A stretch of DNA of 64,000 bases. Origin: Amphiscolops sp. MND2022. Its lineage: Eukaryota. Positions 27,685 through 53,758 of the stretch are shown in pieces. The stretch is from NCBI GenBank assembly GCA_964187785.1, contig OZ076409.1:40302001-40366000 (forward strand). The letters run 5' to 3'. The position numbers and the translations under genes are program-made. The number at the start of each line of letters is the position of its first letter. Positions within the stretch are counted from its first letter, which is position 1. Under the pieces are notes generated by a model that was given only the letters and a program-made list of their open reading frames with translations, had not been told where the DNA came from and made no database searches.

Positions 27685-28416
27685 TGTAACGACAGGCTCT
27701 CACCACTGTCGCCGTAACCATGAGAGTAAGAGGAACACATGATATGGGTATTTGCCCGGGACAGGCGCCCATGACCATGAGCTCATTTTGCCTCCTTCGG
27801 GTAAAAACTGTCCCGTCAGAGGAGGATTCCGCTTCTTGTGAAGTGCTCGCCGGCCTGATCCAGTCTGTAATTGCTATCAGTAACGCGAATTACGCTTTTT
27901 CTTCGAAACCAACGCTTAGATAGCCTTTAAAAACAGGTGAGGTGGAAAAGGAAAATCGTGTTCTCTTGTAGCTACAGAGGAAATCGAAATAAGTAGCTCA
28001 CGAGCTATTACCATGACAAAATACGCAATTTACTGCATAATTAGCACTTTTGGGGCAGCAATTAGCCTGGGACACAAGCACGGATGCTTGTTCAAGCTAG
28101 TTGACTCATTTTGGTGGTCACAACATATTGTAATGATCTGCTAAAGAAAGCACCGATGGGAACAGAGTTTAGTCCGTATCGGCCGAAATTTGAGTCTTTT
28201 TCTGACAGGTTTTGCGGATTCCTGTAGTCGTCTAGTTCGTAGTGGGTCTCTTCTGCTTCTCTCGCTCAAATCCTCTTCAATTTCGGGGACAGGTCCTTTG
28301 GTAAAGACACGGTATCCTTCAGCGGAATATGACTTTTCAGGGGAGGGCATCTAGTCCCTTGAACGAAAATTTCAAAAAAAATTTCGAATTCTCGGACTCG
28401 ATAAGTGATCGTTACA
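27685..28416 (-). repeat. 3' LTR of giant element
   Basis: Matches 46693-47424; preceded on minus strand by PPT-like GGGGAGTGA (28417-28425). Confidence 0.96.
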
Positions 28417-29344
28417 TCACTCCCCGGGGTCTATGCTTGACGTCCCCGTCAAGTGAGGGTAGGCGTCATCGAGTTCCTTGCCAGGTATCATCTCTAGGAG
28501 CTCATCTGCCGTCGCAAGCTGCATTGCATAGACTGTTTCGTCGTCGCGTCGTCCGGTTGACCATTGGAAGCGTTTTTGACCCAGCATTGCTGCATTTTGA
28601 TCAAAACTACTTACAGCTTCGTATACAAATTTAACACGGCAAATTTTTTTTATATCCCGTCGCGAGCTACTCGGGCTTTTAAAACTTCTTTTCGGCCTCT
28701 CAAAGTTCGGCCGTCCGTGTCAAAATCTGTTTTAAGGTCAACGACCTTCACATGACAAGTTAAACTTCTTTTCCGAAGCTCGGGAGCTTCGCGCTGCTTG
28801 GCGCTTGGTAAAAACATCTTTTTTAGCAGCTCCCATCAATTTAACAGATATAGTCAATTTTTATTTTAAAAAAAATTTTGTGAGACTCAATCTCAGTCCT
28901 TCTAAGTAACTCAAGGAAAACAACAGGTTAATGCTCAAAAGCTTTCATTTCTTTCTTTTCCTTTGTTCTCTTCTCTTCTTTTTCCGTCTTTCCAGACGTT
29001 ATCAAAAATCAATATCAAAACTAGTAACTAAAATGGGTGTAATAGCACCTGATGAATATGCTTGGGATGTGTACTATATACCCTCAAGCTAGTAACACTA
29101 ACTACAACGAAAATTATTGCACCGAAATGATACAGATGGGGAGGAAGAAGCCCGCGGGCTTCAACCTCGCTTCTTGGTTTCTGCACCGTGATTAATTGAT
29201 GTTTTCGTATACAACTGCAAAGTTCGTTACAATGTTCAAGCGTATCAACGACATCTGACAACAAAGCTTCGATAAAAGAGCTTAGTAGCGACATTTAAAG
29301 CATAACAGCAATTCTTAATTTAACGGTGATGTTTGGACTTCGCT

Positions 29345-32300
29345 TCATTGTGTGGCGGAGGAGTGGCGCGCCCTGGGCGAAGTGCTCTTCTTCTCTTCCA
29401 TCTCGGACAATGATCCTCTACGGACCGTGGCTTCTCGCAGTACTGGTCCAGAGGCGTTATGGGCAGTCTCCGGTGTATTGGGAGCGGCACTGGAACTGCA
29501 ACGGTCACTGGTCGTTGGTATTGGGGTGGATGCCTCAGGGGAATGCTCTTGTGCGGCATTAGATTCAGTGGCGTTGGTTGAGCTGGATGCGGGGACGTCA
29601 GCCGGAATCTGCACATCTAGTCGACTTGCATTGAATAGATGTGGCAAGTCGATCGGCCTGTTCCTTGTAGCGATGGGGCGCTTCTGCTTCGCGCTGATTT
29701 TACGGCGCAGGTCAGGTCTGCCCCAGAGCCCGCAGGCTCTGGACCAGTTGTCTCTATTTTCATGCTCGATTATTTGTCTTGAAGCTTCCCATTCTGGTCC
29801 CAGAGGATCACTCAGCAGCTCCATGATGTGATAGCAGGTTTCTGCTGGCATATCACTCCCCATGGTTACTCTGGCCTCAGGATTCCATACTGGCGAGATT
29901 TGTGGGGGTACGACTAACCCTTTTAGTCTTCCCTGACGTTCCTCCAAGGTGCGAGACATCCATACACCCAACTTGTAGTGATCCCTGTATGCATATTGCT
30001 CGTCAAACCCGCGTTCGATCATGCTGATAGGTTTGGCTCTGGCATAGCCTATTGGTCCTCGCCAATATCTCGCCGGGATCTTGATCAGCTGAAAATGGTA
30101 ATCGCGATTGGTGTGACCACCCATAGCTTGCACGCACTCAATCACATACTTCCGCAGGTGTGCGAAACTCCAGTTGAATCGGATTGGGATGCCCTTGTCA
30201 TCCAGAGGCGAGTTATACCAGTTTACTGGGCCATATTCTCGAGGGAGAGGGCAAGCCTTCTTCGTTCGAGCTTTCAGTATTCCCGATAGATTCTCATCCT
30301 GCTGGGTTTCATTTTTTGATCGTCGTATACATGCGGGGTACCCTCAAGTACAACCCACGTTCCAGCATTTGTTGATAGTTATGGGGCTTTACGTTCTTTA
30401 TAAATGTCAGGATGGACACCGATGGTGTTTCTGAGGCAAGTCGTAGGGGTTTAGTTGGGTATCGGAGTATCCCAGTCGGACCAAATATCGGAGTTAGCAC
30501 GGGTGCTAACACTGGTATTAAGTCTTCCACTTCGGACAGTGTGAAGTCCGCCAGCTGGTTAGGTGTAAGGAAGCCCGCCACCTCCGTCACCAATTGACGT
30601 CCGTCATAAAGTGGTTGATTCTTATCAACTCCAACAAAGAGTCCCGAAGAGAAGACTAAGCTACAGTAAATCCAATGGTGCAACGAAGTGATCATTTTCG
30701 CCAGGTGTGCGGGATAATCTTGTGCGTCCTTCTTCTGCAACAGTTCGGCTAGAGCAGTGAGTCCTTTGATGTCCCCACGCGACAACACCAGGTAAGAAAA
30801 CAACCATTCCAGGTTACTCTCTGTTATTAAGTCCGTCAGAATCATCATTGGACCCGCAACGAAACGCTTCTGACCAAAGGTCAGCATCAGGGCCAAAACT
30901 TCGTTCAGCTGCATGGCACCAATGATCTGGCTAATCTCGATGATTTGTTGCTCCTCGATTCCGAATTCCACGCGAGTTACATCTGGACTCCAGCCCAGCC
31001 CCAGACAGATCGCAAATTGATCGGTTGACATTCCAAGCTCTTTTGCTATATTGGCAATGGTGGTAGTCTGAAGTTGCTGGTACCACCCATCGTAGGTGCC
31101 ACTAAGGGCCTGGATCTCCGCTTGGGTCTCGCTCGTTAGTTTGGCGGTGATGTATCTCATGCCCGCAGACAGCTGGTCGATTGTGAGGTCTTGGGCGAAT
31201 TGAACTCGTGGGATCGCTCTTTCAATTTCTCTCTCGTTGGGCACTTTCCCCATCGCTGCAGTGACTTCCGCCAGGTCATCCTTTATCGAGGTTTTTCCAC
31301 CGGAGGAGCGCGCGCGCTCCATCCAGTTATGCATACGAATGGCTTCGCACTCACTTTTAGTAGGTTCTGGGAGGCGTCTCTCTCCTTCTTCGGTAAACAT
31401 TAACACAGCCATCCTGGTACCATGATCGAAGTAAACTGCGTCATCGATTGTCAGTTGTGCGTTTCCAGTTTTCTCGACGGATTGCAGCACTTTGGACACT
31501 GAAGCGATATACCCCATATATGATAGCCAAGAGGGGCGCAAATCGCTGCTACTGACACGTAGATTTGGCGCACAGATCGCGAAGTCCACTTCCCTGCTTT
31601 GACACACCTCAGTTACAAGGTAGACGAAACGTTGTAAGGCTGGATGCCATTTGCAGAAGCCAGGAGGTGTAACAAAGATCACCGGCACCTTCAATTTCCT
31701 CTTCAGAATATTCTGGGCCTTCTCCATAGCTCCCGCCAGATTGGTTAATGCATTACGAACTGTTGCTCGTTGTGCAGGAGTTGGATTCAGCATCTCCACA
31801 TTGACGATCTGAGTCATCAGACCTTCGCAGGCCAGGTGGTCGAAAACATTGCTGATGATAACCCTGCGCGGGGGTGGTTCCTTGTACGTCCCTGTCATCT
31901 CGGGGTCGAACATCGTGACCAGGACTTCAGCCATCTCGGGAATGCGGGATAGCGGCAGGGTGAAAACCATCACGTCTGAGAGCACATTGTCTATTGGAAT
32001 GTTTTTCAAGAATGTCGAGTCGATAAGTAAGGCGTAGCGCGCACGCTGCAACCTTTCTTTTGGCATGGGAAGCTGTGCCTCCAAGTCACGGGAATATCTG
32101 GGATTGACTTCATACGTTTCTTCTGCGCGGAGGAAGTACCTTTCTTCGAATTGCCCACGGAGGTCTATGTTAAGGGCATCCAGATAATTATCCTCCACGT
32201 TGGGCAGTATGTTCGTGGCCTTCCCCAACCATTGCGGCTCGTTCGTGGGGGTATGGTCCATGCGGAGTGGGCGAGTCATGAACACCAATACGTGGTCTTT

Positions 32301-33911
32301 CTTCAGCCTCGCGTGTTGTTCGTCGCTGGGAGGACACATGTTCTTTTCGAACAACCACTCTGGTGATATGATTACTGCCGATTCCCAGATACGCCTGGCG
32401 TCTTTCGTTACCAGACTACCCTTGGAGTTTTGCATCGGGCTCAAGTATGTCGGCTGTTTGGTGAACGTTCTTTTCGTTGGATGTTGGATCGCTTGCTTTC
32501 TGAGCGGCGTAGCCGTCGGTCCGCTGTTGGTCACCTTCAGGCCGGGATAATCATCCATCACATCCTCAACGGTTCTCTGCGCCTGGGGTGTCCCTTGGTA
32601 GCCGATTGTGGGTTTGCTTTGCTGCTGCTTTGACGACGATGGTTTGGGAATCGCCCTTTGTGCTAGCGATTCACGCGATGTCGGTTGTGAGGGTGGCAGT
32701 GGTTGCATTATTCCTTGTCCTTCAGTGGATTGGCTCGGTGGCGGCGAAGGAAGCACGGGTGCTTCCGACACCATTGTTTTTGTGTGATCAGATGCGTTGA
32801 CAGTCATGGGTACTTCTATGGATGCTGGCGTGGTTTTTTCGTTGGAGACTCTCTTATCCGGTGGTGGTTTACTCGACGGGCTGTCGCGAACAGCCATTGG
32901 CGGTATTGCACTTGTGCTTGCCCTTGTCGGTGAACGATCATTCCTTTTTCGGGAAGCAGGACGACGCTCTCCTCCCCCCTTGTGAGAAGATGAGGAGCGT
33001 GAGGATGAGCGACTGCGTTCCATAGTGACTGTGCGGGAATGTCCCGGTTGTTCAGACAGCGGGTTCACATGTGGAACAGTCAGTGCGGATGGCGCAGTGA
33101 GGGCACTCGTGTTCTGAATTGTGACTGTGGGAAGGGTTATTTGGCGTAACTCCGGCCAGCATCGCTCCATGGACGTCATAAAGTCAGAATAATGTGGGTC
33201 AATGGCGACAGCTTGCAAGGCTGAGATAACTGCCTGTTCAGCCAACGGTCTATTCGTCATATCAGGAGGCGCTGGTGCAGGCGGGCGCGCCTGAGAGCCC
33301 GGGGGCTCTCCGGCACGCGCGGCTGATTGAGATGCAGGTACCGGTGGTGGTGGAGGAGGGCAAGATGGAATCTGCAAAGAACGGGTCTGGTGGACGCCGC
33401 CACTGGGTAAACTATTGGAAATCGCAGCACGATCGTCAGTGAAGTGATGAGTCAAATCATGACCAAACCACACTCCCTCATGGAAGGTCATGGACCGCTG
33501 AAACCCAGGAAAACCAGACGTGATTGAGATGGTCAGCATTGGAGCTTGGGTCTGGGACTCCATCTGTGCAATTATCGCTGCCACTCCAGCCACAGTAGCG
33601 GATGATAGACCTTGGTCAAGGCGGTCGCGAATGAAAGCGACCTGAGATGTTCGCTGAACACGCGCAGTGTCATATATGCGCTGTCCCATTGCAGGTGATT
33701 CATTGGAACATCGTGGGGGTACTTCGTCAGCTTTGTCTCCGTGATTCATCACCAAGTCTCTGAAAGAGCGCAAGTTGACTGCGTGTTGATCAGTTGCAGT
33801 GCAATACATAAAATCACATTGGGGCAGTACCAAAGACAGGTAACCAGGTAGCGGAACTAATGACATAAGGATAAGTAAGGTAAAGCAAGAAATACACTCA
33901 TACTTCGTCAA
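29345..33911 (-). CDS. Large accessory ORF (~1500 aa when a 1-nt frameshift in an A6 run at 30312-30317 is corrected) with SGNH/GDSL-hydrolase-like domain
   Basis: ORFs 30309-33911 and 29345-30145 join via open sequence IKNETQQDENLSGILK...; ALLIDS, RVIISNVFDHL, DLRPSWLSY motifs at ~31480-32040; long Pro/Ser-rich linker. Confidence 0.7.
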
Positions 33912-33958
33912 CTCATTAAGCTTAACTAACTAAGAATACGAGAAAACAACAAAAAAAA

Positions 33959-36733
33959 TCACGGAAAGCTAGCGATGCTCGCGATGGAAACGTAAATGCG
34001 ATCATGTAATACCACAGACAAAGGTGTATCAGCGAACGCGTCCATTAAGCAGGTATAAAAATCAAAGAGATTACGTATCGGGCGCTCGGGATCGATGATA
34101 GCAAAATGAACCTCGGTGGCTTCTAGGCGTTCGAGTAACGTTTTCAAATATTCCAGACATACGAAAAGAGTATCAGCTATCATGGGGCAACGGGGCGTGG
34201 CGCGCGTAATCAATAAATGTATAGTTTGGGGTTTGTCGTTAATCATAGACACAGGGAGCGTCAATACATTTCCAACTTCCGGTCGGAGTCGAAATATGGT
34301 GTCGGCTCCATGCTCACGCATTACGTAGCGAAGGGCGGCAGAATTAGTCTCCAGATTCGCGGGGCAACACAAAACAACATTATGGGAAGCTTGTAGGAAA
34401 TCCGTGCTGGCATACTGTATGTAGTCGACCAGTTGAGGTCGCACGATTCCATGATATACCAGTTCTCGTCCAGGATCATTGGAGAGGCCATCATCGCAGG
34501 AAACCGGTAGACAGCCCTTAAGGGTTCCCAAGTCTTGCCACACCGAGCGAGGCAAGGATTGATTATCGATGTTCGCCCTGGACCATGTATCCAGCGCCTG
34601 CAAGGCAGACTGGAGTGAAGTGGGTCGTGGAAAAGAATGTGTCCACTCGTCGAGAAAGCGGATTCGAGGGAAACTCGATAAGATCGTGATGATAAGTTCC
34701 AACCACCACTCAAACTTGACTTTGCCGCGATACAAGTCGATGACGTGGAAACATGTTATTTTGTTAGGAGAGGCCATGGTTCGTAAACTCTCGAGACAAG
34801 TGTGCAGGGTTAAAGGGTCAACCAAATCAGAAGCGCGAGGGGCGGTGACCAATAGCCACCAATGAGTTGTTGGTTGATACACATCCCCTGGCGTTGCAAC
34901 GACATTATACCTATCATACAAGAGGTCAGCTGGAATGCAACGTACCATCTGAATGGGTTCTCGTTCATAGTTAAAGGGACCGAAAGCAATATTAGCGGGT
35001 AATGGAGGAACAGTAACAGGCAGTGTGAACTCAAGACCGCGAAGATCATAAGTCCATTCCTTGAATCTCGGACATGGGGCCTTCGCTACCGTCGAGCCTT
35101 TCATCTTGGATAGGATAAAGTCTATAGGATACGGGTTTTCACTGCGTTGTAGCCCAGTGTACGTCTTCTCGGCTCGAATGGTCAAACGGTCGACTGTGCC
35201 GTTTGGGAGTGGCGTCTCCTTCTCACGTGTCAGTAAGACTCCCCGGGGTCTAATTGGGAAGTCCGCGTGGACCAGATTATTGCATTTACAATCTCGTAGG
35301 CCACATGTTCCACAGCGGTATCTGGGGGCACGATTACGTCGTAGGCCATAGCCAGTATTAGGCAACTCCTGCGTTTGCGCTTGATCTGAGGTGACTGCTG
35401 CACTAGGAGCAGAAGAATCAGTATCCACAGATGGGGTATGATGAACACGGGTGGAGGCATTGGGTTCAGTACGTGTTGCTTGAGGTGGTCTGCCTCTGGG
35501 GCGTCCTCTCTTGCGAGCTCCCCTAACAGCGCCTCTTTGTCGATGGCCACGCGGCAGCGAGGCTCGCAGCCTTGCTCTGCCGGGCGGATGTCTTCGTGGT
35601 CTGCTGTGTTGATGTCCTCTGGGAACACCAGGAAGCTTTACTGCTATGGTTGTGTTGTTGGTTGGAATAACTATGGGGGGATTTAACTCTTCTTGACCAT
35701 CGGATATTAGCGATTCGTTACCATCATTCTCCAAGGGTGAATTCGAAACACTATCGTCAATCAATGGCCAAATGGGGAAATTACTCAGCATATCCGTGAG
35801 AGATGGGTTCGTTAACAGTGGAGCAGACGTACCTGCTAAAGAAATGCTAGCATTCTTGGTAGGTATCTGAGTAGGGGCAGATGCCTGAGTAGGAGGACTC
35901 TCGGTATTCTCAATGACGTCAGGTATTACTTCATTCTCTGAGAACAGAGCCTCCTTAGCAGGTAATGGCGAGATCGGCATTTCAAGGATAGGCACGGGTT
36001 CATCCACAAGTGACGACAGAATCACACTCTCGTCGGGATTCACCTGAGCGCTTGATAGAAGTACATCAGAGCGTTCGTCTTCAGATTCCGTTTCGGAATG
36101 ATCGAACTGTTGGTAATGTAGTCGACTGCCACCAGCGCGTGTACGAGTACGCAGTCGAGTATCCATCCAATGTCTTTGTCGGGAAGGCAAGGAGACGTTG
36201 CTGGCTTCCGACAGTGGTTCTTCCGCACGATAGGAAGGTTGTGATGCATCATCTCGAATATCTTCATGAGACTGCTCTGGGTCTGGATCCATAATGATAG
36301 CGACTTCACCGTAGTGCGCAGGGATTGCGGCCCACTCTGTTAGACCACCGTGATGCGGTTTTAGTCGTTCAAAATGTACCATTTGACCAGTGTCGAGTTG
36401 CATGTAGACGCGTCCTTCCTGTAACACTCGTGCTACTTTGTGAGGACCGCGCCAAGCTCTCATCAGTTTGGGAGATCCCTTTTGAGGAATGTATCGGCAG
36501 AAGACCCAAACAGGTTCGCCCACTTCATAAGCTTTAGCACGAATAGCTCGGTCGTATTTCAATTTCTGTCGTTGTTGGGCTTGATGTGTATTCCGACGAA
36601 CTAAGTCATGGATCTCTTGCTGTCGGGCCAAGACATGTTCCACATATGCCTCGTGCGATTCGAATGACTGAGTGGCGAATTCTGGGTACAGGAAGGTCAG
36701 GGGTATTGCTTTTTCCATGCCTCTCGTCAACAT
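33959..36733 (-). CDS. pol: Integrase C-terminus with long extension: GPY/F motif, AT-hook, CxxC cluster, two macrodomain-like repeats
   Basis: In frame with pol after a TAA at 36734-36736 (TGFSP*MLTRG); WRGPHKV and VHFERLKP integrase tail; RKRGRPRGRPP; RCGTCGLRDCKC; TARG1-like C-terminal repeats. Confidence 0.8.
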   Translation of the reverse strand: MLTRGMEKAIPLTFLYPEFATQSFESHEAYVEHVLARQQEIHDLVRRNTHQAQQRQKLKYDRAIRAKAYEVGEPVWVFCRYIPQKGSPKLMRAWRGPHKVARVLQEGRVYMQLDTGQMVHFERLKPHHGGLTEWAAIPAHYGEVAIIMDPDPEQSHEDIRDDASQPSYRAEEPLSEASNVSLPSRQRHWMDTRLRTRTRAGGSRLHYQQFDHSETESEDERSDVLLSSAQVNPDESVILSSLVDEPVPILEMPISPLPAKEALFSENEVIPDVIENTESPPTQASAPTQIPTKNASISLAGTSAPLLTNPSLTDMLSNFPIWPLIDDSVSNSPLENDGNESLISDGQEELNPPIVIPTNNTTIAVKLPGVPRGHQHSRPRRHPPGRARLRASLPRGHRQRGAVRGARKRGRPRGRPPQATRTEPNASTRVHHTPSVDTDSSAPSAAVTSDQAQTQELPNTGYGLRRNRAPRYRCGTCGLRDCKCNNLVHADFPIRPRGVLLTREKETPLPNGTVDRLTIRAEKTYTGLQRSENPYPIDFILSKMKGSTVAKAPCPRFKEWTYDLRGLEFTLPVTVPPLPANIAFGPFNYEREPIQMVRCIPADLLYDRYNVVATPGDVYQPTTHWWLLVTAPRASDLVDPLTLHTCLESLRTMASPNKITCFHVIDLYRGKVKFEWWLELIITILSSFPRIRFLDEWTHSFPRPTSLQSALQALDTWSRANIDNQSLPRSVWQDLGTLKGCLPVSCDDGLSNDPGRELVYHGIVRPQLVDYIQYASTDFLQASHNVVLCCPANLETNSAALRYVMREHGADTIFRLRPEVGNVLTLPVSMINDKPQTIHLLITRATPRCPMIADTLFVCLEYLKTLLERLEATEVHFAIIDPERPIRNLFDFYTCLMDAFADTPLSVVLHDRIYVSIASIASFP

Positions 36734-39700
36734 TTACGGGGAAAACCCAGTCGTTGCATGACGTGTAGAATTATACGCACCCATCACTTCATCTAAGTAT
36801 TGGTCCCAGTCTCGCATTCGTCGGGAGCAAAACACACGCAACAGGGTAAGCAATGTTCTATTTTGTCGTTCCACCAGTCCTTGAGTTTTAGGGTGACCAG
36901 CGGTTGAGGTAACCTTAGTCACCTGTGCTGCTCTCATGAACTCAGTAGATACTGCCGCGGTAAAGTTTGGAGCGTTGTCTGATTGCATCCTGGTTGGTGT
37001 ACCATGTCGGGCAAACCATTTTTGCAGCAATCTCTTCGAGGTGGTTGCTGCATCGTACTCGTCGTGGTTGCATGGTACTGCTTCCGCGAGTTTGGAAAAG
37101 TGATCAATGATGACCAGGATTCCAGTGTTGCCATCATCTGAGGGACAAATTTTCAAGTGATCATATTGAACCAACTCATTGAAGTAGCCACTCTGAATGT
37201 TCTTCAAGTGAAATCGTACATCACCAGGCTTATCGCGTACCTGTTGACAGGTTATGCATTGGCTAACGTATTGCCCAATGGTGCGGCGTATTCCTGGCCA
37301 GGTGTGGCGTTCTTGTATCCTTGCCAGCACCTTTGCGATACCCTGATGTCCCATCGCGTCGTGGGCCTTGAACAAGATCTCATGCTGGTATAATTGGGGC
37401 ATCACAATCATACATGGGCGTTCATGCAGTGCTCTCTGATTCTTGGGATATCTCACACACAACACGCCGTTGGCGTTAATCAGCAGGAGGTTCTTCTTCT
37501 GTTTGTAATAATTTTTGGCGAATGTGCGCACGTTCTCGGGAAATATGTCGTCATCTATTGATTCTTTCATTTCCAATTTCTTGATGGCCAAGATGTGGAC
37601 ATCGCGGTTTTGTGCCAAAAGGAGATCCTTCAATCCATGAACTGTATTTGCGTGTTCATGTAATTCCATCGATACACTTTCAACTACTAGTGCCATCTGC
37701 TTCACGTATTCGGGCGCGGTATCAGTCGCTAGCTTTTCCGCCCCAGTCAACGGGTAGGTCGTTCTTGATGGGACATTGGCAGCATGTGTGGGAAGCAAGT
37801 AGTCCCGTTGATATTCTTCGGTTAATTCTAGCCAATCCTCGGGATATTCGGGATAGAAATCTGCAGGCATCTCCAATTCGGGTTTGGGCAGTATAGGCAT
37901 AGGCGCTTTCATCGCTTTGTCGCGCATGATCGCACTTTGTCTACTTTGTCCGCTTCTCCGTGTGGGAGCGATCGTTGTGGTTTGAGGTGAGTGTTGGGTG
38001 GCCAATCTCTGCAAGTGCGTAGGCAGGTCGGGGTGATTCGGTATCACGCGTCCTTGAACATCAAACCATGGGGCTAGTGGGAGTCTGTCATATTCTTCTT
38101 GCGATAGGAAGTTCCATTTGTTAGCAATTGCTGGTAGATTTTGTAGCTGTTTCTCATGCTTTTTATAGTCGTTGGTTCGTTTACTAAGGCCATCGGCATT
38201 TCGATGTTGTGTTCGGGGTCGATGCACAATGCTGAAATGATATTTTTCTAGAGCCACTATCCATCGACCAATAATCGCCTGATCCATCGAATATGTCTTC
38301 AGCCATGAGAGGGCTTGATTATCGACTCTCAATGTAAATTTTCGGGGACAGAGATAGCTGTGGTTCTTCAAGATGAAGTAGTATGCAGCGTACATTTCCA
38401 GTTTCGGTGCTCCATACTTGGCTTGTGTAGAAGTCAACTTTTTGCTTCCGAACACAATTGGTCGTAATTTGCGGTTTTCGGGTGGTCCCTGCCATTGGTG
38501 AAGAATACCAGATATTGCTACCCCGCTGGCATCTGTGTCTAGCACGAATTCGCCTTCGGTGTCGGGTTGTGCCAAAGCGGTGGCTTCCATTAGTGCCACT
38601 TTGATGCCGTTGAAGGCTCGTTGCTGCTCCTCCCCCCACAAAAAGGAAGAGCCTGTACCCGTCATCGCGTGCAGAGGGGCAACCAATTTAGCATGCCAGG
38701 GGATAAAATCGCGGTAGTAGTTGGCAAAACCCAGAAAGCTCTGTAGTTCGGTTTTGGTGCGCGGAATATCCCAATCTCTCAATTTCGTGACAGCCTTAGG
38801 ATCTGGTTGGATACCATCTGCAGATACCACTCGACCCAAGTATTTGATTTCTGACTTCATGAAACCACATTTGGATACTCTCATCTTGAAACCGGCCTCG
38901 CGTAGACACTGGAATACTTCGCGAAGCCTATCCATATGGTCTTCGATGGTTTCAGTAGCTATCACGATGTCGTCGATATAGGCCATCACCATACTTCCTT
39001 CACGATTGACTATTCTTTGTAGCGCTCGCGCTATTGCCCGCTGAAATGTCGCTGATGCATTGCACATCCCAAAGGGCATGCGCCGCCATTCGAATAATCC
39101 AAGTTCACAAGCAAAGGCAGTCTTTTGACGATCAGCCTTTCGGACAGGAATTTGCCAGAATGCCCATGCTAAGTCGATGCTGGTATAGATCTTTGCCTTC
39201 CCTAATCGAGATAGACTCTCGTCAATTCGTGGTAGAGGATATGCATCCTTGATAGTCACTTCATTGAGTGGTCGAAAGTCACAACAGAATCGTAATTCAC
39301 CACTCTTCTTTTTGACCATGACAATACCACTCGCCCAAGGGGATAGAGAAGGTTGTATCATTCCCAAAGCTAGCAAATCACGAACTTCTTGATTGGCCCG
39401 TTCTGCTTTGTCAGGCGACATTCGTCGTGCACCTTCGCGGTGGGGTATAGCCCCTGGCTCTACTTCCACCGGGTGCTTAGCAATTTTACACTTACCAATG
39501 TCAGCCTTGTACTTCATGAACAAATCGTCAAACTCTTTTAAAAGTTTATCGAGCGTGTCGCTGGCGGCCGGACCCCATAAATTGCGTACTTCAACGAGTT
39601 GCGCTTCCGGGCCCGGTATTGGGGCCATTAGTGCCGGATCGGTGCGTTTTTTTATTTCGCGTTCTGACAAACCTAGCTCCGAGGGATCAGTAGAAGACAA

Positions 39701-40738
39701 AAACTCAAATTCAGATGAAGAGCTATATTCAGAAGAAGAATCAAGATTCATCTGTTCATATACTTTACAAACATAACTTGCATTTGACTGCTGAGTTTCA
39801 GTTGCTTGTCCGGGGACAACTTGGGGGATGGCTCTATGGACCATGGTCACGGGTATTGCGGTTCCCAAGAGGGTTCCCTTTTTGACCCGCTGGACGTTGC
39901 TAGTAAGGTTTCCTAAACTGATGTAAAGGAAGCCTGTTTCCCCCACGGTTGCCACAGTGTCTTCTAAAAATATGGCGTTTTTCAACATTCGATTAGGTGT
40001 TTGAAAATTGATTAAGACAGCACGGAATATGAAAGGTTCTAGATCACTTGCAAGTAACTTAGCGCGCAGTATGGCGCGTTCAAAGGGTTGCAAAACTATG
40101 TCCTCTGCCGTAGCTACCGACGAGCTAAGCGATTCATCACTTACCTGCGCATGGGCGTGATACCATACTGGTTCCGAGGGGGCTCGGACAATGACTTTCA
40201 TCGCAGTGAGGTCTACCAAGACCTGATAGGCTCGGAGGAAGTTCCTGCCTAGCAGAAAGTCTTCCACTCCCATAGCATCGTCAACCACTACGAAGTTAGT
40301 TTCCAACTCGTAACCTCCCAGCTGGAATTTGACTTTCTCTGCTAGACCAAAAGTTTTGATCGTCTTTCCATTCGCCGCGTACAAATCAATATTGTAGGGT
40401 CGCAGAAGTGTACCAGTGCGCACGGCGACACGGTTATAGGCCGAGAACGTGAGGATAGATACCCTCGATCCAGTGTCTATCAATCCGCGCAGTGGTATGG
40501 GTACATCATCAGGGACCATGAATGAAACTACGAGCGACGCACGCTCATCGATTCTCGCTTCACCAGATGGTTCTTGAGCATCAATATTGTAGCAGCGTAG
40601 CTCTCGAGGTCCCAAGCAAATTCCAGGAGGAAACGCATCAGTTATTACAGTCGCTCCAAAACGCATGTCGACGCCATCAATGCAAACTTTAACTGGAACA
40701 GGAGAATAGGCATGATAGGTTGAAGTGACTCCCTTGAC
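36734..40738 (-). CDS. pol: pol: aspartic protease, dUTPase-like relic, reverse transcriptase, RNase H, integrase core
   Basis: LIDTGS, FLLGRNFL, LRFCCDFRPLN, MPFGMCNA, YIDD, TDASG, NADGLS, H-x3-GH...CxxC, QYDH, SDNA, GLVERQNRTL. Confidence 0.96.
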   Translation of the reverse strand, partial: VKGVTSTYHAYSPVPVKVCIDGVDMRFGATVITDAFPPGICLGPRELRCYNIDAQEPSGEARIDERASLVVSFMVPDDVPIPLRGLIDTGSRVSILTFSAYNRVAVRTGTLLRPYNIDLYAANGKTIKTFGLAEKVKFQLGGYELETNFVVVDDAMGVEDFLLGRNFLRAYQVLVDLTAMKVIVRAPSEPVWYHAHAQVSDESLSSSVATAEDIVLQPFERAILRAKLLASDLEPFIFRAVLINFQTPNRMLKNAIFLEDTVATVGETGFLYISLGNLTSNVQRVKKGTLLGTAIPVTMVHRAIPQVVPGQATETQQSNASYVCKVYEQMNLDSSSEYSSSSEFEFLSSTDPSELGLSEREIKKRTDPALMAPIPGPEAQLVEVRNLWGPAASDTLDKLLKEFDDLFMKYKADIGKCKIAKHPVEVEPGAIPHREGARRMSPDKAERANQEVRDLLALGMIQPSLSPWASGIVMVKKKSGELRFCCDFRPLNEVTIKDAYPLPRIDESLSRLGKAKIYTSIDLAWAFWQIPVRKADRQKTAFACELGLFEWRRMPFGMCNASATFQRAIARALQRIVNREGSMVMAYIDDIVIATETIEDHMDRLREVFQCLREAGFKMRVSKCGFMKSEIKYLGRVVSADGIQPDPKAVTKLRDWDIPRTKTELQSFLGFANYYRDFIPWHAKLVAPLHAMTGTGSSFLWGEEQQRAFNGIKVALMEATALAQPDTEGEFVLDTDASGVAISGILHQWQGPPENRKLRPIVFGSKKLTSTQAKYGAPKLEMYAAYYFILKNHSYLCPRKFTLRVDNQALSWLKTYSMDQAIIGRWIVALEKYHFSIVHRPRTQHRNADGLSKRTNDYKKHEKQLQNLPAIANKWNFLSQEEYDRLPLAPWFDVQGRVIPNHPDLPTHLQRLATQHSPQTTTIAPTRRSGQSRQSAIMRDKAMKAPMPILPKPELEMPADFYPEYPEDWLELTEEYQRDYLLPTHAANVPSRTTYPLTGAEKLATDTAPEYVKQMALVVESVSMELHEHANTVHGLKDLLLAQNRDVHILAIKKLEMKESIDDDIFPENVRTFAKNYYKQKKNLLLINANGVLCVRYPKNQRALHERPCMIVMPQLYQHEILFKAHDAMGHQGIAKVLARIQERHTWPGIRRTIGQYVSQCITCQQVRDKPGDVRFHLKNIQSGYFNELVQYDHLKICPSDDGNTGILVIIDHFSKLAEAVPCNHDEYDAATTSKRLLQKWFARHGTPTRMQSDNAPNFTAAVSTEFMRAAQVTKVTSTAGHPKTQGLVERQNRTLLTLLRVFCSRRMRDWDQYLDEVMGAYNSTRHATTGFSP

Positions 40739-43700
40739 TTACCACTCTTCGGGCTGAGGTAGAGTCAATTGCTGATAATTTTCATTGGTAGTCATCTCTT
40801 CGATCAAAGCGTCGATGGTGAGTTCTGGGCGTGTTTCCCTCTCAATAGCCAGTAGCAATCTGGCAGACATTATCGTGCGTCCAGAAGGGTCGAAAATAGT
40901 TGGCTCTGGACTCGTCTGGATTTGAATTTTACCGCACGTAACGGTAAGAGAGGTTGCCACATGAACGGCTTCAGCTGGGCGTAACGTGAGAACCATTTCA
41001 CTATCGCTCAATGTCTGAGGGGTTGATGGCTGTGCAGCCCAGAGGCTGTAGGCCAAATCTTCATGTATTGGAACGTTTTGGCAATGTGATGCTGAGTGTT
41101 CAGTCATACCACAATTGACACAGAACATAGGACCGGAACATGCCGAGGCCACATTACTTTCGCAAAGATTTACTCGTTCGTTTGGCGCAGCGCGAGCAAT
41201 GGGTTTCCTTGCTTGATCCTTATTTGGGCATTCCCGCGCGAAGTGACCGGGTAATCCACAATTGAAGCATGCTCCTTGGGTAACTATCCTCGCTGGTTGT
41301 TGGGGCGGTGCAGCTTGTTGTACCGACGCTGGAGCTGGTGGGGCCATTTGGGGCTTTGCCTCGTGTTGTTGTCCTTGATTTGGAGGGAGCACATTTTGTG
41401 GCAGACCTGGTGCTGGATGAACCACTTTTCCTGGCACAAAAGGGTGAGGCCTTGATCTCATCGCATATCTAGGATCATAGGGCTTTGACGTTGTTGGACG
41501 GTGTCGCTGCAATTGCCGCGTGGTGAATCTCAAGGACTCCACAGTGGGCGGTTCAGTCAGATACGTCTCCGCCGCGTACACCACAGCCAATTCTTGTCGC
41601 AGTGTAGGGTCGTTCACACCATCTATGAAGCGTTGCAGGATTTCGTAACGACGGGTACTGATAGGCTCATCTGGAAAACCTTGGGTGCGCAGGCCTTCTA
41701 ATGCGTCCAAAAACTGCATCCAATCCTCCTTCTCCTGTTGAACGCGAGACATAAAGGTCTGCCGGACGTGCATACGGTTGCCACCTGTCCCGAATCTGCT
41801 GGCTAGGAGGGCGAACACCTTGTCTGGTGTATCTCGTTCAGGTTCTGACTTATTGATAATGTAGTTTCTTGCTTCTCCTTCTAGGTGATCAATTATTGCC
41901 CAGGCCTTGTCGACGTTTGATGATTTTGCATGTACCCTTTCCACCTTTCCAGGAAGCGTTTCATCAGTGGAAGCCACCCGTCAACGGTTCCGTCTTTTGT
42001 ACCTTTATACACTGTAGGACGGACTCTCGTCTGATCACGATTAGCAATTAATGGCGCCAGTTCTTTGGACATTGCCTTTGATATCGCTTCAGTGAATCTG
42101 AGTTGTTCCGGTGATATTGGTGCTTCTTCAGTTGTTGCCGGTGGTGGAACACTGCTACCTCGTGTAGAGTTAATTGAATCATCGGTGTTCTCCGAGATGA
42201 TCACTTCTCTGCGTCGGGTGCTGCTTGCGCACGGATTGCCCGGGGGCAATCCAGTGTCCGCAGTTTGGAATTCTGCATTTGACTCTCCCAAAGTCGCGTT
42301 TGCTGTTTGGAAGGTACTCGTGGTGTTGGTCAATTCGATGATGCACGTGGGTTCTCGTAGACCTGTGATACCCATGCTCAAAGTTTCAAGGGTTATTGCT
42401 TCATACGTTGGTTCCTTTTCGTGAGACTTCGTTATTGGCGGGATAAACTCCGTTTGTGCTGGAAGGATAAGCTTCGTGGACGTTGATACAGCTTCTCCAC
42501 TCGAAACAAGGGGTTGAGGTAGGGGTGCGTATCTCGCCATAGGTTGTTTGGAACCTGAGGGTTTCGTCGTGGTGATTATACTCTCTTTTGGTTTGAGTGA
42601 AACACTCTTCACAGGCTTTGGTAGGGACATGTCAGTCTCCTGCAATAGTTCTTTGATGGTGTTGTTTGGTAGAGTTGATTGAGGCTGGACATTTTTTAGC
42701 GCAGTGCCCATCGCCTGTATTTGCGAGCACACCTCCTGAATTTGGGCTTCCATACGTACCTCTCTTTGGGCCATCATATCCTTCATTTCAGCCATTCGAT
42801 AACCCATGGCATCCATGCGAGCAGCTTGTACTTCCTGTCCTTGCATTTGTCGCTCAGTGGAAGTCCTTAACTCACATTGCACAGCTTCAATCTCCTCCAC
42901 AATTGCCTGATGTTCTCTATCGCACCTCGCCTTGCGCTCAGATAGTTGGGAAGCAGCTTGCTTCACACCAGCTTGGGCTTCCAGCAGGGCTTTACGCGCC
43001 TTTGCTGCTTCATGTACAGCTCGGTATGCTGAAGATCGACCAGACACAGCTTTTGATGAAGGTGAGGACGAGCGCGAGTCGCCGTGAGGTCCTGTAGTGC
43101 CAGTCTGTGCTAGTAGAGCTGGAGGCCGTATTTGTCTACTTTTTCCCGATGGCCGGGGTGCAGTGGCTTCTTGCAAGCGCGCTCTGGCATAATTCATACC
43201 CCCGACATAAGACATTTGTTGCAATATCTCTGCCGTGTTCGCAGTGCTCTCGCTTGCCATGCTGGGAGCCTTGAATTGTCCAGTAGCATTCAAGCAACTC
43301 ATTTCAGCTTCTTCCTCAGCATTTGTTCTGTTGGAGTTGGGCCATGTTCCTGCTTCGTCAGTACCGAAAGGTGTGACAGCTACTTTGGTCAGTTCTTGCA
43401 ACCATTTGGACGTGTGCGCCTGACTTCCTGTTTCGTCGGCTGATCCCCCGATATCGTCTGCCGTCCTGGTGACCTGTTTGGTCTGGTATTCTTCTGATGC
43501 GTTGTCTGACATAGGGTCTGAAAAATCGGGTTCCATAACAAAACTGTCATCAGTTGGCCAATCTTCCTCCCTGGGGTCTGAGGTTAGGTCTGATATTGCA
43601 CTGAGGTTTGTCTCGCACGCCACGGGTTCTGGTGTTTTCAGTGTTTTGGCGTGTAGTGAGGCAGCTTCCCTACCCCTCTTTGAAAGATGTGAGTGCCGAT

Positions 43701-43767
43701 GGGTGTTCGAACGACTTAATGTCTTTGTGATCGAATTCCAAAGACTGCGGAAGTTGTTGTTTTTCAT
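40739..43767 (-). CDS. gag: gag (~1006 aa after removing an 8-bp duplication at 41936-41951)
   Basis: Capsid-like YKGTKDGTVDGWL..MKRFLERVHAK..KAWAIIDHLEGEAR; knuckles CFNCGLPGHFAREC and CVNCGMTEHSASHC; long coiled-coil N-terminal extension. Confidence 0.88.
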
Positions 43768-46659
43768 GACTTAGCCTATTTCGGAATAGTCGAAATTCGA
43801 TGAGGGAGTCGCTTCGGCGTGAAACGTTTACTGCGCGTTAATACCGTTGCGTGGGGTCGAAAACCGTGCGTTTAGGGTTCACGAGGCAACTATGTCACAC
43901 ACACTTAAGTTCTTTTGATAGTTTCAAAGATTTTTGGAGTCTTTCAAAATTCACTCATCGTCTGGTACGTGATGTTCGATTGTATAAAGTACTTGAAAAA
44001 TTATCACGATTCACATTAAGTGATGGACTCACTAACATGCGTTTAGACAAGGGAGTTTTTGCAAATTTTTTACATGGAAGACCGGGTTTCGTCCCACTTT
44101 TCTAAGTTTCGCCTCGGTGGAGACTTGAGCCAGAATGATGATACGCACGTCTCGAATGGGTCGAAACCACATCTAATGGTCGTAGCGAGTTCAAACTTAC
44201 TCAAGCAGTTGTTACCAAACCACAAGCTCAGAAAATGAGCTCAGATTGATGCTACCTTTTCGCTAAGACAATTATGCGACGTTTACAACAAATCTTGAAT
44301 TTTCTCGGAGAGTACCAAAAATATATAAGTGGCTCAAATTCGTTCCTGAAGAATAGGATCTGGCTCAAAATTGACCAGAGGATCTTACACACATATAGGT
44401 ACACGGAATTGAGCACCGATTTGAGCTCCGAGGGTTGTGCACTGTTTTGCCTTGGTATAGACGTGCGGTACACCTATGTCTCAGTAGGAGTCAAAATGCA
44501 CGCTTATTATACAATTTCTAGGCACCAGTATGAGTTAGCGGTTCGGTATTCTCGCTAACAATGCAACAACTAGCACAAGTCACGATGGTGGGCTGCAATT
44601 TATCCCCACTTTTCCAATAAGGTGTTCAGGCATTTCTGAAAAATTTCGAAAAATTTGCCTTTTTGCACCTCTTTTTGAGCAGTACTTTTCAGTCAATTTT
44701 TCAATAAATACAACACTGATTGGCTCGAAACTTAGTAGGCGCTGTCAGTGGGCGCCCACAATGCTGGTTCAATGGTCCGATGAAAGCTCGCGAGCTTTTC
44801 TAGGGTTTCGACTGAGTTCAGACACTATTTCAGCAACAGTCCTTTTTTTGACACTTTTTTCACAAATAGGCTAAGAGGGTCGACACTACAAACGTTACGG
44901 CAGGCAAAATAAGATCAACGTGTTGCCCCACTAGTCACAGCACTGCCACAAGTCCTCAATTAGCCGCGCCTGTTAGGTTTGAGGCACTGTCGGTCTTATA
45001 GTTTTGGAAATTTTCGGCTAGGTCAGCTCAATCTGATGTCAAAACGTCAGAGAGCTTTTCTCAACTTTGGTTAGCGCTAGGCTCACCAAATTTTCGGCAC
45101 TAGTATTATTTTTGTGGTGGTTACGAAAATGCAACCAGTTTTTAGCTAGGGTTCGGGAATCTATGACCCGACCCTAACAATTGGACAGTCCGGTTTTGTG
45201 GAAATTTGGTCAGATTCAATGCGTTTTTCCACTTTTCTCAGCACTGAAAAGGAATTTTTTGACGCGGTTTTCAGCACTATGCGTTATTTTTTATGTAAAA
45301 ACAGAAAATGAGAGCTGGGAAGCTCCTAGCTAACAAAAAGAGTGTCCAGGGGGTTTTAATTATATATGCGGACACTCCTGAAACTAACTAAAAATCAACG
45401 TTTTTCAACTTTTCTTCACACTGAAAAAGAATTTTGGGGTGCAGTCTTCACTCTTGACCGTTAAATCTTTCGAATAAACTGGAAGCAACAGTCCGCGGAC
45501 TGTTCTTGGTATAGGAATGTTAGTCAATGATCGGTTCAAGTTCCATTCAAGAATACTATTGGAAAACTTCAAAATTGCAATTTCTGTAGGTTTTTGTGGC
45601 AGGTAGTGACAATAATTACCGAAACAGGCAGCTCTAGGTACCGGCTGGTGTGCCCTGACATAATTGTGGCCCAGTGGGGATGTTTGGAAGTTCCAACATC
45701 AATCTCCCCACTACTAGAAGTGCTTAATTTTTCCGAAACGGGGTTTTCTCTCACAAGATTCGCACTAAGTGCTTTTTTGGGCAACTTTGAGCAGTTGGCC
45801 CTGGTTTTTGTGAACTCATTAGAGTTCTGAGCTACTTTTATTTAATTTCTGCAAATGTGTGGCTGGCACCAAGAGCGCTCGCGCTCATGTAGGTGTTTCG
45901 CCTCAAAGTGGCCAAATTTGGCACTTTTCGTCGAAAATACATGAAAAAACGCAATTTTTGCACAAAACAGGTGCAAATGCACACGCCTATTTGCAGAAAG
46001 CTCGTAAGAACATCGGCAAGTGATTACACATAAAATTTTGAGCAATCAAAAAAAATTTTTCAACCTGACTCAAAGTATTCATACAACCTGGATCGACGAG
46101 TTGTATCTTTCCGTTCCTTTTACTCGTCACCCAGAACAGTTAGAGACAAACGGGTTGCATCTCTAGATAGGTCAGTGTTTGTAGTACGTTGCCACTAAAT
46201 TTCGTTTTTCTGGGTAGCCTGTACGAGAAATGGGATAGGCGAGTCGTACAACTCCATTCCGGCAGGTTGTAAGGTACTTTTGAGCAAGGATCATCCTCTT
46301 CTCAACACTCGCTTCATTGGTCATAAAAAGCTGAAAAAGGCTGGAAAATACCTGTTAACACCTCTAGCAGCCTTTTGACGGCTTGCTAGACCAATTTTAG
46401 AGAGTGACCCGTTAAGAGGGTTGGTTATTTCGACTGTTACCTGTTAACTACTAAAAAGCTTCAGAATTACAACATACAGCGCTTTTTCACTAAATTTACC
46501 TTTAACCACCAGGCATAAAGCCTTCAATAATGTACATACAGGGTAAAAACATAGAAAACTCTGCTTCTGTCTTCTCCTCGTCTGAGTCGGGTCGTACTTG
46601 GCGTCAATCACCAGAGGGTCGGCTCTTTTAAAACCATTAAGGGAAGCACTTCGAAGCGA

Positions 46660-46676
46660 TCCCTCTGTGGTCGCCA
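46660..46676 (-). promoter_or_regulatory. Primer-binding site, tRNA-Arg-like
   Basis: Minus strand TGGCGACCACAGAGGGA, 16 nt downstream of the 5' LTR end. Confidence 0.7.
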
Positions 46677-46692
46677 AAAAATGATGTCTCTA

Positions 46693-47424
46693 TGTAACGA
46701 CAGGCTCTCACCACTGTCGCCGTAACCGTGAGAGTAAGAGGAACACATGATATGGGTATTTGCCCGGGACAGGCGCCCATGACCATGAGCTCATTTTGCC
46801 TCCTTCGGGTAAAAACTGTCCCGTCAGAGGAGGATTCCGCTTCTTGTGAAGTGCTCGCCGGCCTGATCCAGACTGTAATTGCTATCAGTAACGCGAATTA
46901 CGCTTTTTCTTCGAAACCAACGCTTAGATAGCCTTTAAAAACAGGTGAGGTGGAAAAGGAAAATCGTGTTCTCTTGTAGCTACAGAGGAAATCGAAATAA
47001 GTAGCTCACGAGCTATTACCACGACAAAATACGCAATTTACTGCATAATTAGCACTTTTGGGGCAGCAATTAGCCTGGGACACAAGCACGGATGCTTGTT
47101 CAAGCTAGTTGACTCATTTTGGTGGTCACAACATATTGTAATGATCTGCTAAAGAAAGCACCGATGGGAACAGAGTTTAGTCCGTATCGGCCGAAATTTG
47201 AGTCTTTTTCTGACAGGTTTTGCGGATTCCTGTAGTCGTCTAGTTCGTAGTGGGTCTCTTCTGCTTCTCTCGCTCAAATCCTCTTCAATTTCGGGGACAG
47301 GTCCTTTGGTAAAGACACGGTATCCTTCAGCGGAATATGACTTTTCAGGGAAGGGCATCTAGTCCCTTGAACGAAATTTTCAAAAAAAATTTCGAATTCT
47401 CGGACTCGATAAGTGATCGTTACA
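46693..47424 (-). repeat. 5' LTR of giant element
   Basis: Matches 27685-28416 at ~99%. Confidence 0.96.
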
Positions 47425-52204: not shown

Positions 52205-53758
52205 TTTCAACAATGTTTAATTCAAGAGTGATTGATTTCACTTCCGGTTGAGAATGAAAATGAAAAGTTCTTCACAAACTGACTGAGATTTAATTTTCAG
52301 CTGTACGTAGCTTTTTGCTACCATAGTGTATTTTTCATTAAGAAAACTGCAATAAATTCTTTAGAAAAGCCTACTGGACTAATAAATTTTCCTTGCTGAC
52401 GCTTCTCAACATTCTAATCTACGAAGTCTGTCGAAAGTTTGACAAAAATGCATTTAAAAATTTGAAAAATGGAAAGTTTTGGGTTTTTTTGTTATTTTCG
52501 GTATCAATATGAGACCTTTTTCATTTGGAAAAAAGCAATTATCTTTTCTGAAAAGCCTACCAGACAGCAAATGCGTGCCATGTTGAGTGTTCTCATTATT
52601 TTAATTAACGAAGTATGTCGAAAATTTGACAAAAATTGCTCAAAATTGTTAAAAATCAGAAAATTTTGGAATTTTTGTCATTTTTGGGGTCAATTTTCTG
52701 AAACAAAATCGCATTTATCTCTTCATAGAAGACTATTGGAGAACGAATTCGTGCCCTGTTGAACGTTTTTAACATTCTAATTCGCGGTGTCTTTCAAAAA
52801 AATGACAAAAATTGCATAAAAACGTTAAAAAATTGAGAAATTTGGGAATTTTTGTCATTTTCGGGGTCATTTCGTCATTAAGGGGTCATTTTCGTCATTT
52901 TAAAAAAACTCCAAAAATCTCTACAAATACATATCGCACGAAGCTAAATTTATGTGAGTTGAATTCTATGGGTAACACCCTTAAAGTTAAACATAAATAA
53001 ATTCTTGGCAAATTTTGTAAAAAAAACCCGTTTGATTTAAATATTTTCCTTTCCCATATATGAGATATGGGCGGAAAATAATAAGTAATTTCAATATTTG
53101 ACCTATTCAAACAACTGTGAGATCAATCGCCAACAGATTGCCAGATACGAGCCAGTAAAGTTTTACGAAGTGCGGGCGCAAACGGAGAAGACTTGATGTC
53201 CGGTACACCCCTTAATGAACTGCATCTGAAATACGCTTTTGAAAGCGATATGTTCTGAAACCGTGCCTAGTTAGGCCGAACCTCTCGGATTCTTATTGCT
53301 GTTATTGACAACAATTGACATTTGCATCTAATTATTGAAAAGGCACTAAAGGAAGTGACTCCGCTGCACCGTTGTCTCGTCAATCACTTCAAAAAACCCT
53401 GTTTTGATAAACTAACGTTTTTTTTGCTAAAAAAGAACGCAAAATTTTTGTTTCCACTTGATATTCTGTCCGAACTCTGGTCACTACTTAAGGTGTAGCT
53501 GCAGTGGAAGCCAGAACCCTATCAAAAGGTGATGACTAATATTCTTTTTGCAGATCTGATTCAGTCCTTATTAGAAACAAAAATTGTTTGGATTTGACCA
53601 GAAAAATGAAACAAACACTAACGAAGCAACTTATGTTACATAAAGTTGTCCAATAGGTTATATCCTGGTTAATGTAGCTGTTGGTTGAGGTGCAAGTCCC
53701 AGCTTAGAAATAGAGATTGTGTGAAAGTTTTGTAAGATTGACTGTGCTTTTTCTTCAG

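Follow-up and report, generated by a model that had tools for sequence, protein, structure and literature searches.

The stretch analyzed here (hereafter the window) comprises 64,000 nucleotides of Amphiscolops sp. MND2022 (assembly GCA_964187785.1, contig OZ076409.1, positions 40,302,001 to 40,366,000), and contains a giant Ty3/gypsy long terminal repeat (LTR) retrotransposon of 19,740 bp at window positions 27685..47424. The element and all features described within it lie on the minus strand. It is bounded by two 732-bp LTRs, the 5' LTR at 46693..47424 (TGTAAC..GTTACA) and the 3' LTR at 27685..28416, which have TG..CA ends at the predicted coordinates and differ at exactly five positions over 732 bp, where about five had been estimated. 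On both sides it is flanked by a 3-bp target-site duplication (TSD), TTC on the plus strand (left copy 27682..27684, right copy 47425..47427). The internal part of 18.3 kb begins with a 16-nt spacer (46677..46692) carrying a T run at its end, followed by the primer binding site (46659..46676), a 5' leader with 26 ATGs (43768..46658; 2,925 nt when measured from the end of the LTR as far as the gag ATG at 43767, matching the predicted 2.9 kb), open reading frame 1 (ORF1, 33959..43767), which in this family is a single Gag-Pol-tail frame, ORF2 (29345..33749, about 1,470 amino acids, aa), and a short polypurine tract, GGGGAGTGA (28417..28425). The GC content is about 36% outside the element and about 49% in its coding part. 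In the window copy, ORF1 is broken by a tandem 8-bp duplication (41944-41951) and two in-frame TAA codons (40739-40741 and 36734-36736), all recognized in the original prediction, and ORF2 by a 1-bp frameshift at 30317, which had been missed. All four breaks are private to this copy and occur in none of eight siblings.

Searches of the 1.07-Gb host genome returned at least 40 matches at 99-100% identity among 2,257 candidates for the LTR, and at least 40 matches at 99% among 433 candidates for a piece of ORF2. The eight full siblings recovered measure 19.4-21.4 kb and share 98.9-99.3% identity with the window copy; between the two LTRs of a sibling there are 0-3 differences (0-5 over all nine copies). 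An unbroken ORF1 was found in none of the nine own-family copies; natural frames nevertheless pass every broken place, and frames of 2100, 2335, and 2150 codons span the places broken in the window copy. ORF2 is unbroken in two of the eight siblings (1527 and 1539 codons from stop to stop), and is 1467 aa long when counted from the Met common to relatives. Four sister families, represented by 12 copies of 18.7-21.3 kb, have the same layout; one unbroken frame of 3,111-3,219 codons is present in three of these copies, and an ORF2 of 1,427-1,450 codons in all 12, which had been selected for an open ORF2. In a large protein collection, every homologue of ORF2 and of the tail of ORF1 is an unnamed ENA protein, with 29-83% identity; since two of them, used as queries, match the host genome at up to 97-100% (130 of 3,257 and 129 of 3,051 candidates scored), these homologues represent sister families in the same host. 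The numerous 99% matches and near-identical LTR pairs bear out the predicted recent activity, at least in the sense of recent amplification, and the natural copies bear out the predicted single frame for gag, pol, and the integrase tail. The window copy is a recently inserted, since-broken member of a 19-20 kb Ty3/gypsy lineage. One sibling (L010, on C3) carries a 1,660-bp insertion within the integrase C-terminal part, and for two sister-family loci (L043 and L046) synonymous divergence (dS) is 0.11 in the reverse transcriptase (RT) against 0.56-1.6 in the adjoining domains, which suggests a recent exchange of the RT region between their families.

ORF1 encodes two CX2CX4HX4C zinc knuckles (41081..41269), a probable retropepsin-like domain without the catalytic Asp-Thr-Gly (40568..41008; hereafter the pseudo-protease), an aspartic protease with a DTG motif (40178..40550), a beta-rich domain (39848..40123), an RT (YIDD) with RNase H (38177..39496), and an integrase with HHCC, DDE core, and GPY/F-type motif (36330..37384), the last of which reads WRGPH (36440-36454) and aligns to the Ty3 motif. 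By its position and sequence pattern, the beta-rich domain may be dUTPase-like, but a profile search gave no dUTPase match for it. The domain order protease-RT-RNase H-integrase between direct LTRs is that of Ty3/gypsy. Among solved structures, the best relative is Ty3 Gag-Pol (E 7.6e-96), followed by caulimovirus (E 1.1e-43) and foamy virus (E 2.3e-41) proteins; the nearest named proteins, from Cordylochernes and Globodera, show about 30% integrase identity. By its sequence, the element is a member of Ty3/gypsy (Metaviridae), sharing with Ty3 the TG..CA LTRs, domain order, YxDD and GPY/F-type motifs, CX2CX4HX4C knuckles, and a tRNA primer, but differing in footprint, primer geometry, and protease layout: its TSD is 3 bp instead of the usual 4-6 bp, its primer site lies 14-17 nt off the LTR, and its 19-20 kb include a pseudo-protease, a macrodomain tail, and an ORF2 with an SGNH-fold domain. 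The superfamily is defined by RT and domain order, so that the absence of the usual 4-6 bp TSD leaves the assignment in place. The original prediction was right on the element, but the 3-bp TSD and the displaced primer site went unnoticed in it.

The 3-bp footprint is a consistent property of the lineage. A TSD of exactly 3 bp flanks 18 of 20 full copies from the five families (one of 21 was left out because the wrong LTR had been picked), 11 of 12 further own-family copies (three of 15 LTR pairs were left out, with the outer end missing or roles unclear), and all three solo LTRs (four of seven single hits were left out as element ends without a partner). Pooled, it is 3 bp in 32 of 35 cases, 4 bp in none, and 5 bp in one, with no match in two, whereas control flanks paired across different copies gave a 3-bp match in 18 of 380 and 10 of 132 pairs. 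TGTAAC..GTTACA termini are present in 20 of 20 copies, and the LTRs measure 710-732 bp over the families. An unrelated 5.9-kb control Gypsy family from the same genome, whose integrase is 25% identical to that of the giant element, has a 5-bp TSD in 5/5 copies and a primer site abutting the LTR; a second candidate control family was set aside for want of a clean LTR pair. Because the control family in the same genome gives 5 bp, the 3-bp TSD is a trait of the lineage and not of host repair. The geometry of the integrase determines TSD length, which serves in the classification of elements, and the integrase of this lineage would likely cut its target with a 3-bp stagger. In four of the five control copies (L070-L079), which have clean 5-bp TSDs, the LTR 3' end is TA rather than CA.

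Over 18 of 18 nt, the primer site can pair with the 3' end of a host tRNA-Arg(TCG), CCA included; in three sister families, the match is to tRNA-Lys(TTT). The spacer between LTR and primer site is 14-16 nt in 20/20 copies and 16-17 nt in 12/12 more, always with a T run. Between sister families (L018-L053), the primer tRNA thus switches between Arg and Lys, with the 14-16 nt spacer and T run kept. Both tRNAs are encoded in large tandem arrays, with 364 matches at a period of about 173 bp for tRNA-Arg(TCG) and 847 matches at about 193 bp for tRNA-Lys(TTT); the arrays are located at C9 57.54-57.57 Mb (L055-L057) and C7 5.22-5.25 Mb. In the standard LTR cycle, spacer bases would be copied onto the end of the complementary DNA (cDNA). 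Priming 16 nt off the LTR would therefore leave extra bases at that end, which would have to be trimmed or skipped because integrated copies end at CA. A literature search on displaced priming returned nothing relevant. The leader contains a conserved block (44358..45510) that shares 74% identity with a sister family across 1,139 nt, while the ORF2 of that family is only about 40% identical. Since 17 of its 18 indels are not multiples of three despite this identity, the block is best read as a conserved non-coding signal, presumably for packaging or translation. Folding z-scores along the leader are patchy, and Rfam gave no match anywhere in the 64-kb window, leader included.

The pseudo-protease, of about 150 aa, lies upstream of the DTG protease and aligns with it end to end in a profile comparison at E 0.004 (controls: E 0.65, reversed, and 0.74). 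Its nearest Atlas clusters are retroviral aspartyl proteases (0.91-0.93), and a model of its complex with the protease scored 0.70, the best of three controls reaching 0.00; together these results support the protease duplication proposed earlier. The score mark used is reached by 51 of 78 solved complexes and two of 108 mismatched pairs, or, for eukaryotes, by 71 of 105 and two of 126; the runs agree in at least 87% of contacts, and the partner pLDDT is at least 74. The model docks the pseudo-protease on the dimer face of the protease, which contributes its catalytic loop, flap, and C-terminal strands to the contact. In our alignment, a Glu is conserved in all families where the pseudo-protease is aligned to the catalytic Asp, and the ratio of nonsynonymous to synonymous substitution rates (dN/dS) of the domain resembles that of RT and integrase. 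With Gag and Pol produced 1:1 from a single frame, the protease would need a brake. That the pseudo-protease just upstream acts as one, capping the dimer face until the particle is assembled, is the reading we favor, at slightly less than even odds. A literature search for tandem proteases in LTR elements found no such description. A similar stretch in the distantly related polyprotein P0202 is suggestive only (7, 8, and 31 of 300 shuffles score equally high), it is absent in P0250, and searches with profiles of the pseudo-protease, the SGNH domain, and the helical domains retrieved no distant relative from the representatives of at least 500 aa.

Beyond the GPY/F-type motif, the ORF1 tail consists of a low-complexity linker, what we take to be an AT-hook-like motif and a CxxC..CxC cluster (35282..35512), and two alpha/beta domains, the first a shortened macrodomain-like fold (34646..34987) and the second a macrodomain of the TARG1/DarG type with degenerate ADP-ribose pocket motifs (33998..34429). 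Macrodomains had been predicted here, and the fold confirms the second (Foldseek E 4.8e-8 to TARG1 4j5q; VIA Z 14.7, root-mean-square deviation, rmsd, 4.5, 147 residues aligned); for the first, the weaker case comes from secondary structure, from alignments in which tandem macrodomains cover both domains (PARP14, model residues 89-420, rmsd 16), and from a weak profile match. The Atlas lead for the tail was a Macro cluster at 0.88, below 0.9, and Pfam and PDB searches with single sequences or profiles matched none of the macrodomain, SGNH, or pseudo-protease cargo. A full HMMER search identified five distant, unnamed polyproteins from ENA and JGI/IMG (P0182, P0189, P0201, P0202, and P0288) which share a Gypsy integrase, long linker, and C-terminal macrodomain with the giant element, but have 34-40% integrase identity and one detected macrodomain. 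In P0182, which passes the Pfam Macro cut-off (E 2.4e-6), LITK and IGCGLD are retained; the corresponding motifs in all families here are L/F-x-x-R and DPER, with replacements in both glycine loops and at the Lys. In a quick integrase tree (48 of 85 rows, picked by identity plus named rows, without an outgroup test), the 3-bp families form one clade (SH-aLRT 99), and a wider, less supported group (SH-aLRT 91) takes in all five macrodomain relatives; the integrase-macrodomain fusion is thus older than the giant lineage, as the distant relatives in the wider group share it. The ancestral macrodomain may have been an enzyme because the P0182 motifs look intact, and in the giant lineage, judging from the replaced motifs, it appears to have decayed into a binding module. 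Relative to TARG1 (OARD1/C6orf130) and DarG, the fold is the same, but here it is fused in tandem to an integrase and its pocket motifs are degenerate. By the TARG1 motif, we take DPER to correspond to the position of TARG1 G123. Substituting Glu for G43, I44, or G123 of TARG1, which is also an RNA-binding protein, eliminates both its binding of ADP-ribose and its activity (PMC5928194). We found no description of macrodomains in Gypsy integrase tails in the literature searched. Chromoviruses carry a chromodomain in the integrase tail, and it is in the same place that the AT-hook, Cys cluster, and two degenerate macrodomains sit; there is perhaps an even chance that they would anchor the integration complex on chromatin or a nucleic acid.

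ORF2 is a non-env protein of the size predicted (about 1,470 aa against about 1500) without a signal peptide. Its residues ~630-825 (31470..32045) form an SGNH-fold domain, in accordance with the SGNH-like protein originally proposed, as supported by VIA matches (best Z 8.7, rmsd 4.2, 181 aligned); SGNH hydrolases fill nearly all of the top 50 fold matches, and the OSK domain of Oskar reaches Z 7.0. All 17 sequences compared keep the SGNH Ser and Asn, and none has a His in block V. The parts outside this domain are helical and poorly modeled. ORF2 has no hydrophobic peak near its start, no C-terminal anchor, and few cysteines (5-19 in about 1,400 aa), and contains one proline-broken hydrophobic stretch (30465..30521), conserved in 6/6 sequences tested. 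A predicted splice acceptor (33760..33773) lies 10 nt before its ATG, and acceptor-like sites precede the ATG in 5/5 families; ORF2 is likely translated from a spliced RNA. OSK is a non-catalytic RNA-binding domain. SGNH ORFs also lie downstream of pol in rotifer Vesta elements, where the catalytic residues are intact, and CR1, L2, and RTEX long interspersed nuclear elements (LINEs) carry an esterase ORF1, for which roles in ribonucleoprotein assembly and membrane targeting have been proposed (PMC5408684). The GDSL/SGNH ORF3 of bdelloid Vesta is comparable to ORF2 in that an LTR element carries the SGNH domain in a non-env ORF further downstream, but Vesta ORF3 is about 1.3 kb and keeps S, G, N, and H (PMC5408684), whereas here the His is missing and the protein, which has helical parts besides, has 1,470 aa. 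Like Oskar and some LINE ORF1 proteins with their SGNH domains, ORF2 may serve as an RNA- or membrane-binding particle scaffold, a role to which we give slightly less than even odds.

All modules appear conserved at the protein level. In two full pairwise comparisons of sister families, dN/dS was 0.03-0.04 for the pseudo-protease, 0.04-0.05 for the protease, 0.03 for RT, 0.05-0.11 for the macrodomains, and 0.04-0.05 for both the SGNH domain and the helical part of ORF2; by these ratios, every module is under strong purifying selection. Taken together, we think it probable that this 3-bp-TSD lineage keeps three kinds of captured enzyme fold as helpers of replication that are likely non-catalytic. 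Several observations weigh against this reading. The functions of the modules are deduced from sequence and models, dN/dS was measured between sister families rather than in the window's own family, and the fold models of ORF2 and the tail derive from shallow alignments (mean pLDDT 46 and 51). In the profile comparison, the two protease domains resemble each other weakly (E 0.004, probability 9%), and the Atlas match shares 134-157 of 256 features, below the 170 typical for true family matches. The pseudo-protease interface is non-canonical, with only residue 52 of the pseudo-catalytic loop in it, and the complex score may stem from likeness to solved retropepsin dimers. The profile match between the two macrodomains (E 0.0035) is barely better than its reversed control (0.022). 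The SGNH Z-scores fall close to values that unrelated folds commonly reach, and a Foldseek search with the ORF2 model gave no PDB match at E <= 0.001; since the SGNH serine and the block III histidine are invariant, some catalysis may also be possible. The splice sites were judged by eye, and the footprint has exceptions, with one sister copy showing a 5-bp match and two copies without a TSD match.

As regards the element as a whole, there is practically no chance that the accessory region arose by a single nested insertion or from faulty assembly, a reading that only the unusual size favors: ORF2 occupies the same place in 8/8 siblings and 12/12 sister-family copies, each copy with ORF2 occupies its own genomic site, and this shared layout at separate sites, with the cargo in all eight siblings and four sister families, refutes the idea. 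Very improbable, too, is a Troyka element (Kuafuortervirus) enlarged by gene capture. Troyka makes a 3-bp TSD, other LTR retrotransposons giving 4-6 bp according to a survey by a Repbase curator (Kojima 2025, PMC12440569), and the giant element further shares with Troyka/Kuafuorterviruses a single Gag-Pol frame and the lack of env (PMC12440569, PMC11673190). However, six features contradict membership, and the TSD is the only hallmark present: the group is defined by CG..CG ends, 100-400 bp LTRs, an internal part of up to 7.7 kb, a CX2CX8-10HX4C knuckle, and the lack of a GPF/Y motif (PMC12440569), and its RT motif is IADD/VADD/LADD (Gong and Han, PMC11673190), whereas the giant element has TG..CA ends, 710-732 bp LTRs, an 18-kb internal part, CX2CX4HX4C knuckles, a GPY/F-type motif, and YIDD. 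As every Troyka hallmark except the TSD fails, the 3-bp footprint looks, from these sequence features, like an independent origin inside Ty3/gypsy. It is unlikely, though much less so, that the family or clade has already been curated in Repbase, Dfam, or GyDB with its 3-bp TSD, leaving only the domain reading new. The lineage is so abundant in its host that any genome annotation would meet it, and a range of 3-6 bp has been given for LTR elements overall, with the groups unnamed (PMC10045372); against this stand the 4-6 bp given in the curator's own Troyka survey for other LTR retrotransposons (PMC12440569), the exclusively unnamed close homologues, and a literature search that shows no such element.

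The modules themselves admit other functions. The pseudo-protease could be the second lobe of a single-chain, pepsin-like enzyme, with its Glu opposite the catalytic Asp and no need for dimerization. The tandem arrangement with a short linker, the Glu conserved in all families at the aligned Asp place, conservation equal to that of RT (dN/dS 0.03-0.04), and, with the caveats of the model, the placement on the dimer face would suit such an enzyme, but no Thr-Gly follows the Glu, an insertion lies behind it, and the Glu is absent from the interface residues of the model. An always-active protease in a 1:1 Gag-Pol would, moreover, be expected to cut too early, an expectation that comes from retroviral work, and we regard a single-chain enzyme as rather unlikely. 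About equally unlikely is its bolder extension, an undescribed Gypsy clade combining an integrase of independent 3-bp stagger that trims about 16 nt off one cDNA end with a single-chain, two-lobed tandem retropepsin. ORF2 might substitute for env in particle exit or entry, given its env position, predicted spliced message, and conserved hydrophobic stretch, and the membrane roles proposed for retroelement SGNH ORFs (PMC5408684, PMC6431247). This is quite improbable, as the signal peptide, the hydrophobic peak at the start, and the C-terminal anchor are lacking, cysteines are few, and no fusion-protein match was found, though two thirds of the model are of low confidence; an errantivirus-type env, with signal peptide and membrane anchor, was rejected. 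Similarly improbable is the enzymatic counter-defence envisaged in the original prediction of virus-like cargo, in which the macrodomains would strip ADP-ribose attached by host poly(ADP-ribose) polymerases (PARPs) and the SGNH protein would modify host targets. The TARG1/DarG-type fold, the listing in the literature of viral macrodomains that oppose ADP-ribosylation, and the intact-looking motifs of the distant P0182 favor it, but the folds have lost their working residues, which makes it weak: both glycine loops and the Lys of the macrodomain are replaced in all families, the SGNH His is missing, and the extra protease lacks Asp-Thr-Gly. In addition, dN/dS indicates constraint and not an arms race, and a comparison of the ORF2 model with viral structures gave no fold match at E <= 0.001. 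We therefore prefer captured folds acting as likely non-catalytic helpers.

Parts of the element are individually older than the family, as the SGNH ORFs of rotifer LTR elements (PMC5408684) and the integrase-macrodomain fusions of distant relatives illustrate. The literature search, whose scope did not extend to subscription papers, Repbase Reports, Dfam, GyDB, or the Troyka supplements, yielded no description of such an element, and neither do the accessible parts of PMC12859917 and PMC9911081. With an internal length of 18.3 kb, the element is large but no record: a review of giant transposons sets the bar at 20 kb of internal length, and the planarian Burro elements, with other cargo, have internal parts of up to 25 kb (PMC6431247). 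Like Burro/GYPSM1, the element is giant through coding cargo, encodes one huge polyprotein, occurs in thousands of copies, and has a domain between protease and RT, but Burro carries MATH, BIR, BCL2, ankyrin, and env-like domains (PMC6431247), none of which was found here by Pfam in any ORF, remote copies being possible in the unfolded parts. The insertion footprint and the pseudo-protease are its more distinctive features.

Other repeats are present in the window and the genome. An older, broken Gypsy remnant with gag and integrase (2278-5136, plus strand) is unrelated to the giant element, its relative being the 5-bp control family. The window further contains an 11-bp minisatellite with inverted, MITE-like (miniature inverted-repeat transposable element) arms (16607-17375), a Tc1/mariner transposase remnant (50702-52106, minus strand; DDE_3 E 4e-20, HTH_Tnp_Tc3_2 E 9e-11), and a tandem array of at least eight units of about 1,340 bp, 93-95% identical, which reaches the window end (53574-63924). 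Elsewhere in the genome, four or five loci (L060-L069) have in common a composite repeat of at least 20 kb, whose ends were not reached; it contains ORFs of 300, 906, and 414 codons and a direct repeat of 1,610 bp.

The lineage bears on several questions of retroelement biology. Its displaced primer site predicts unusual processing of cDNA ends, which is directly testable, and a 3-bp Gypsy lineage with TG..CA ends beside a 5-bp family in the same genome offers a ready-made comparison for studying what determines the stagger. LTR finders that require a TSD of 4-6 bp, a usual default, would miss the lineage despite thousands of candidate matches in the genome. The macrodomain and SGNH modules illustrate captured enzymes retained after the likely loss of catalysis. 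The pseudo-protease, which is as conserved as RT, would represent either a new way to time a protease without a Gag-Pol frameshift or a natural single-chain retropepsin; if the latter is true, the tandem retropepsin would be a present-day parallel to the duplication from which pepsin-like proteases are believed to have arisen.

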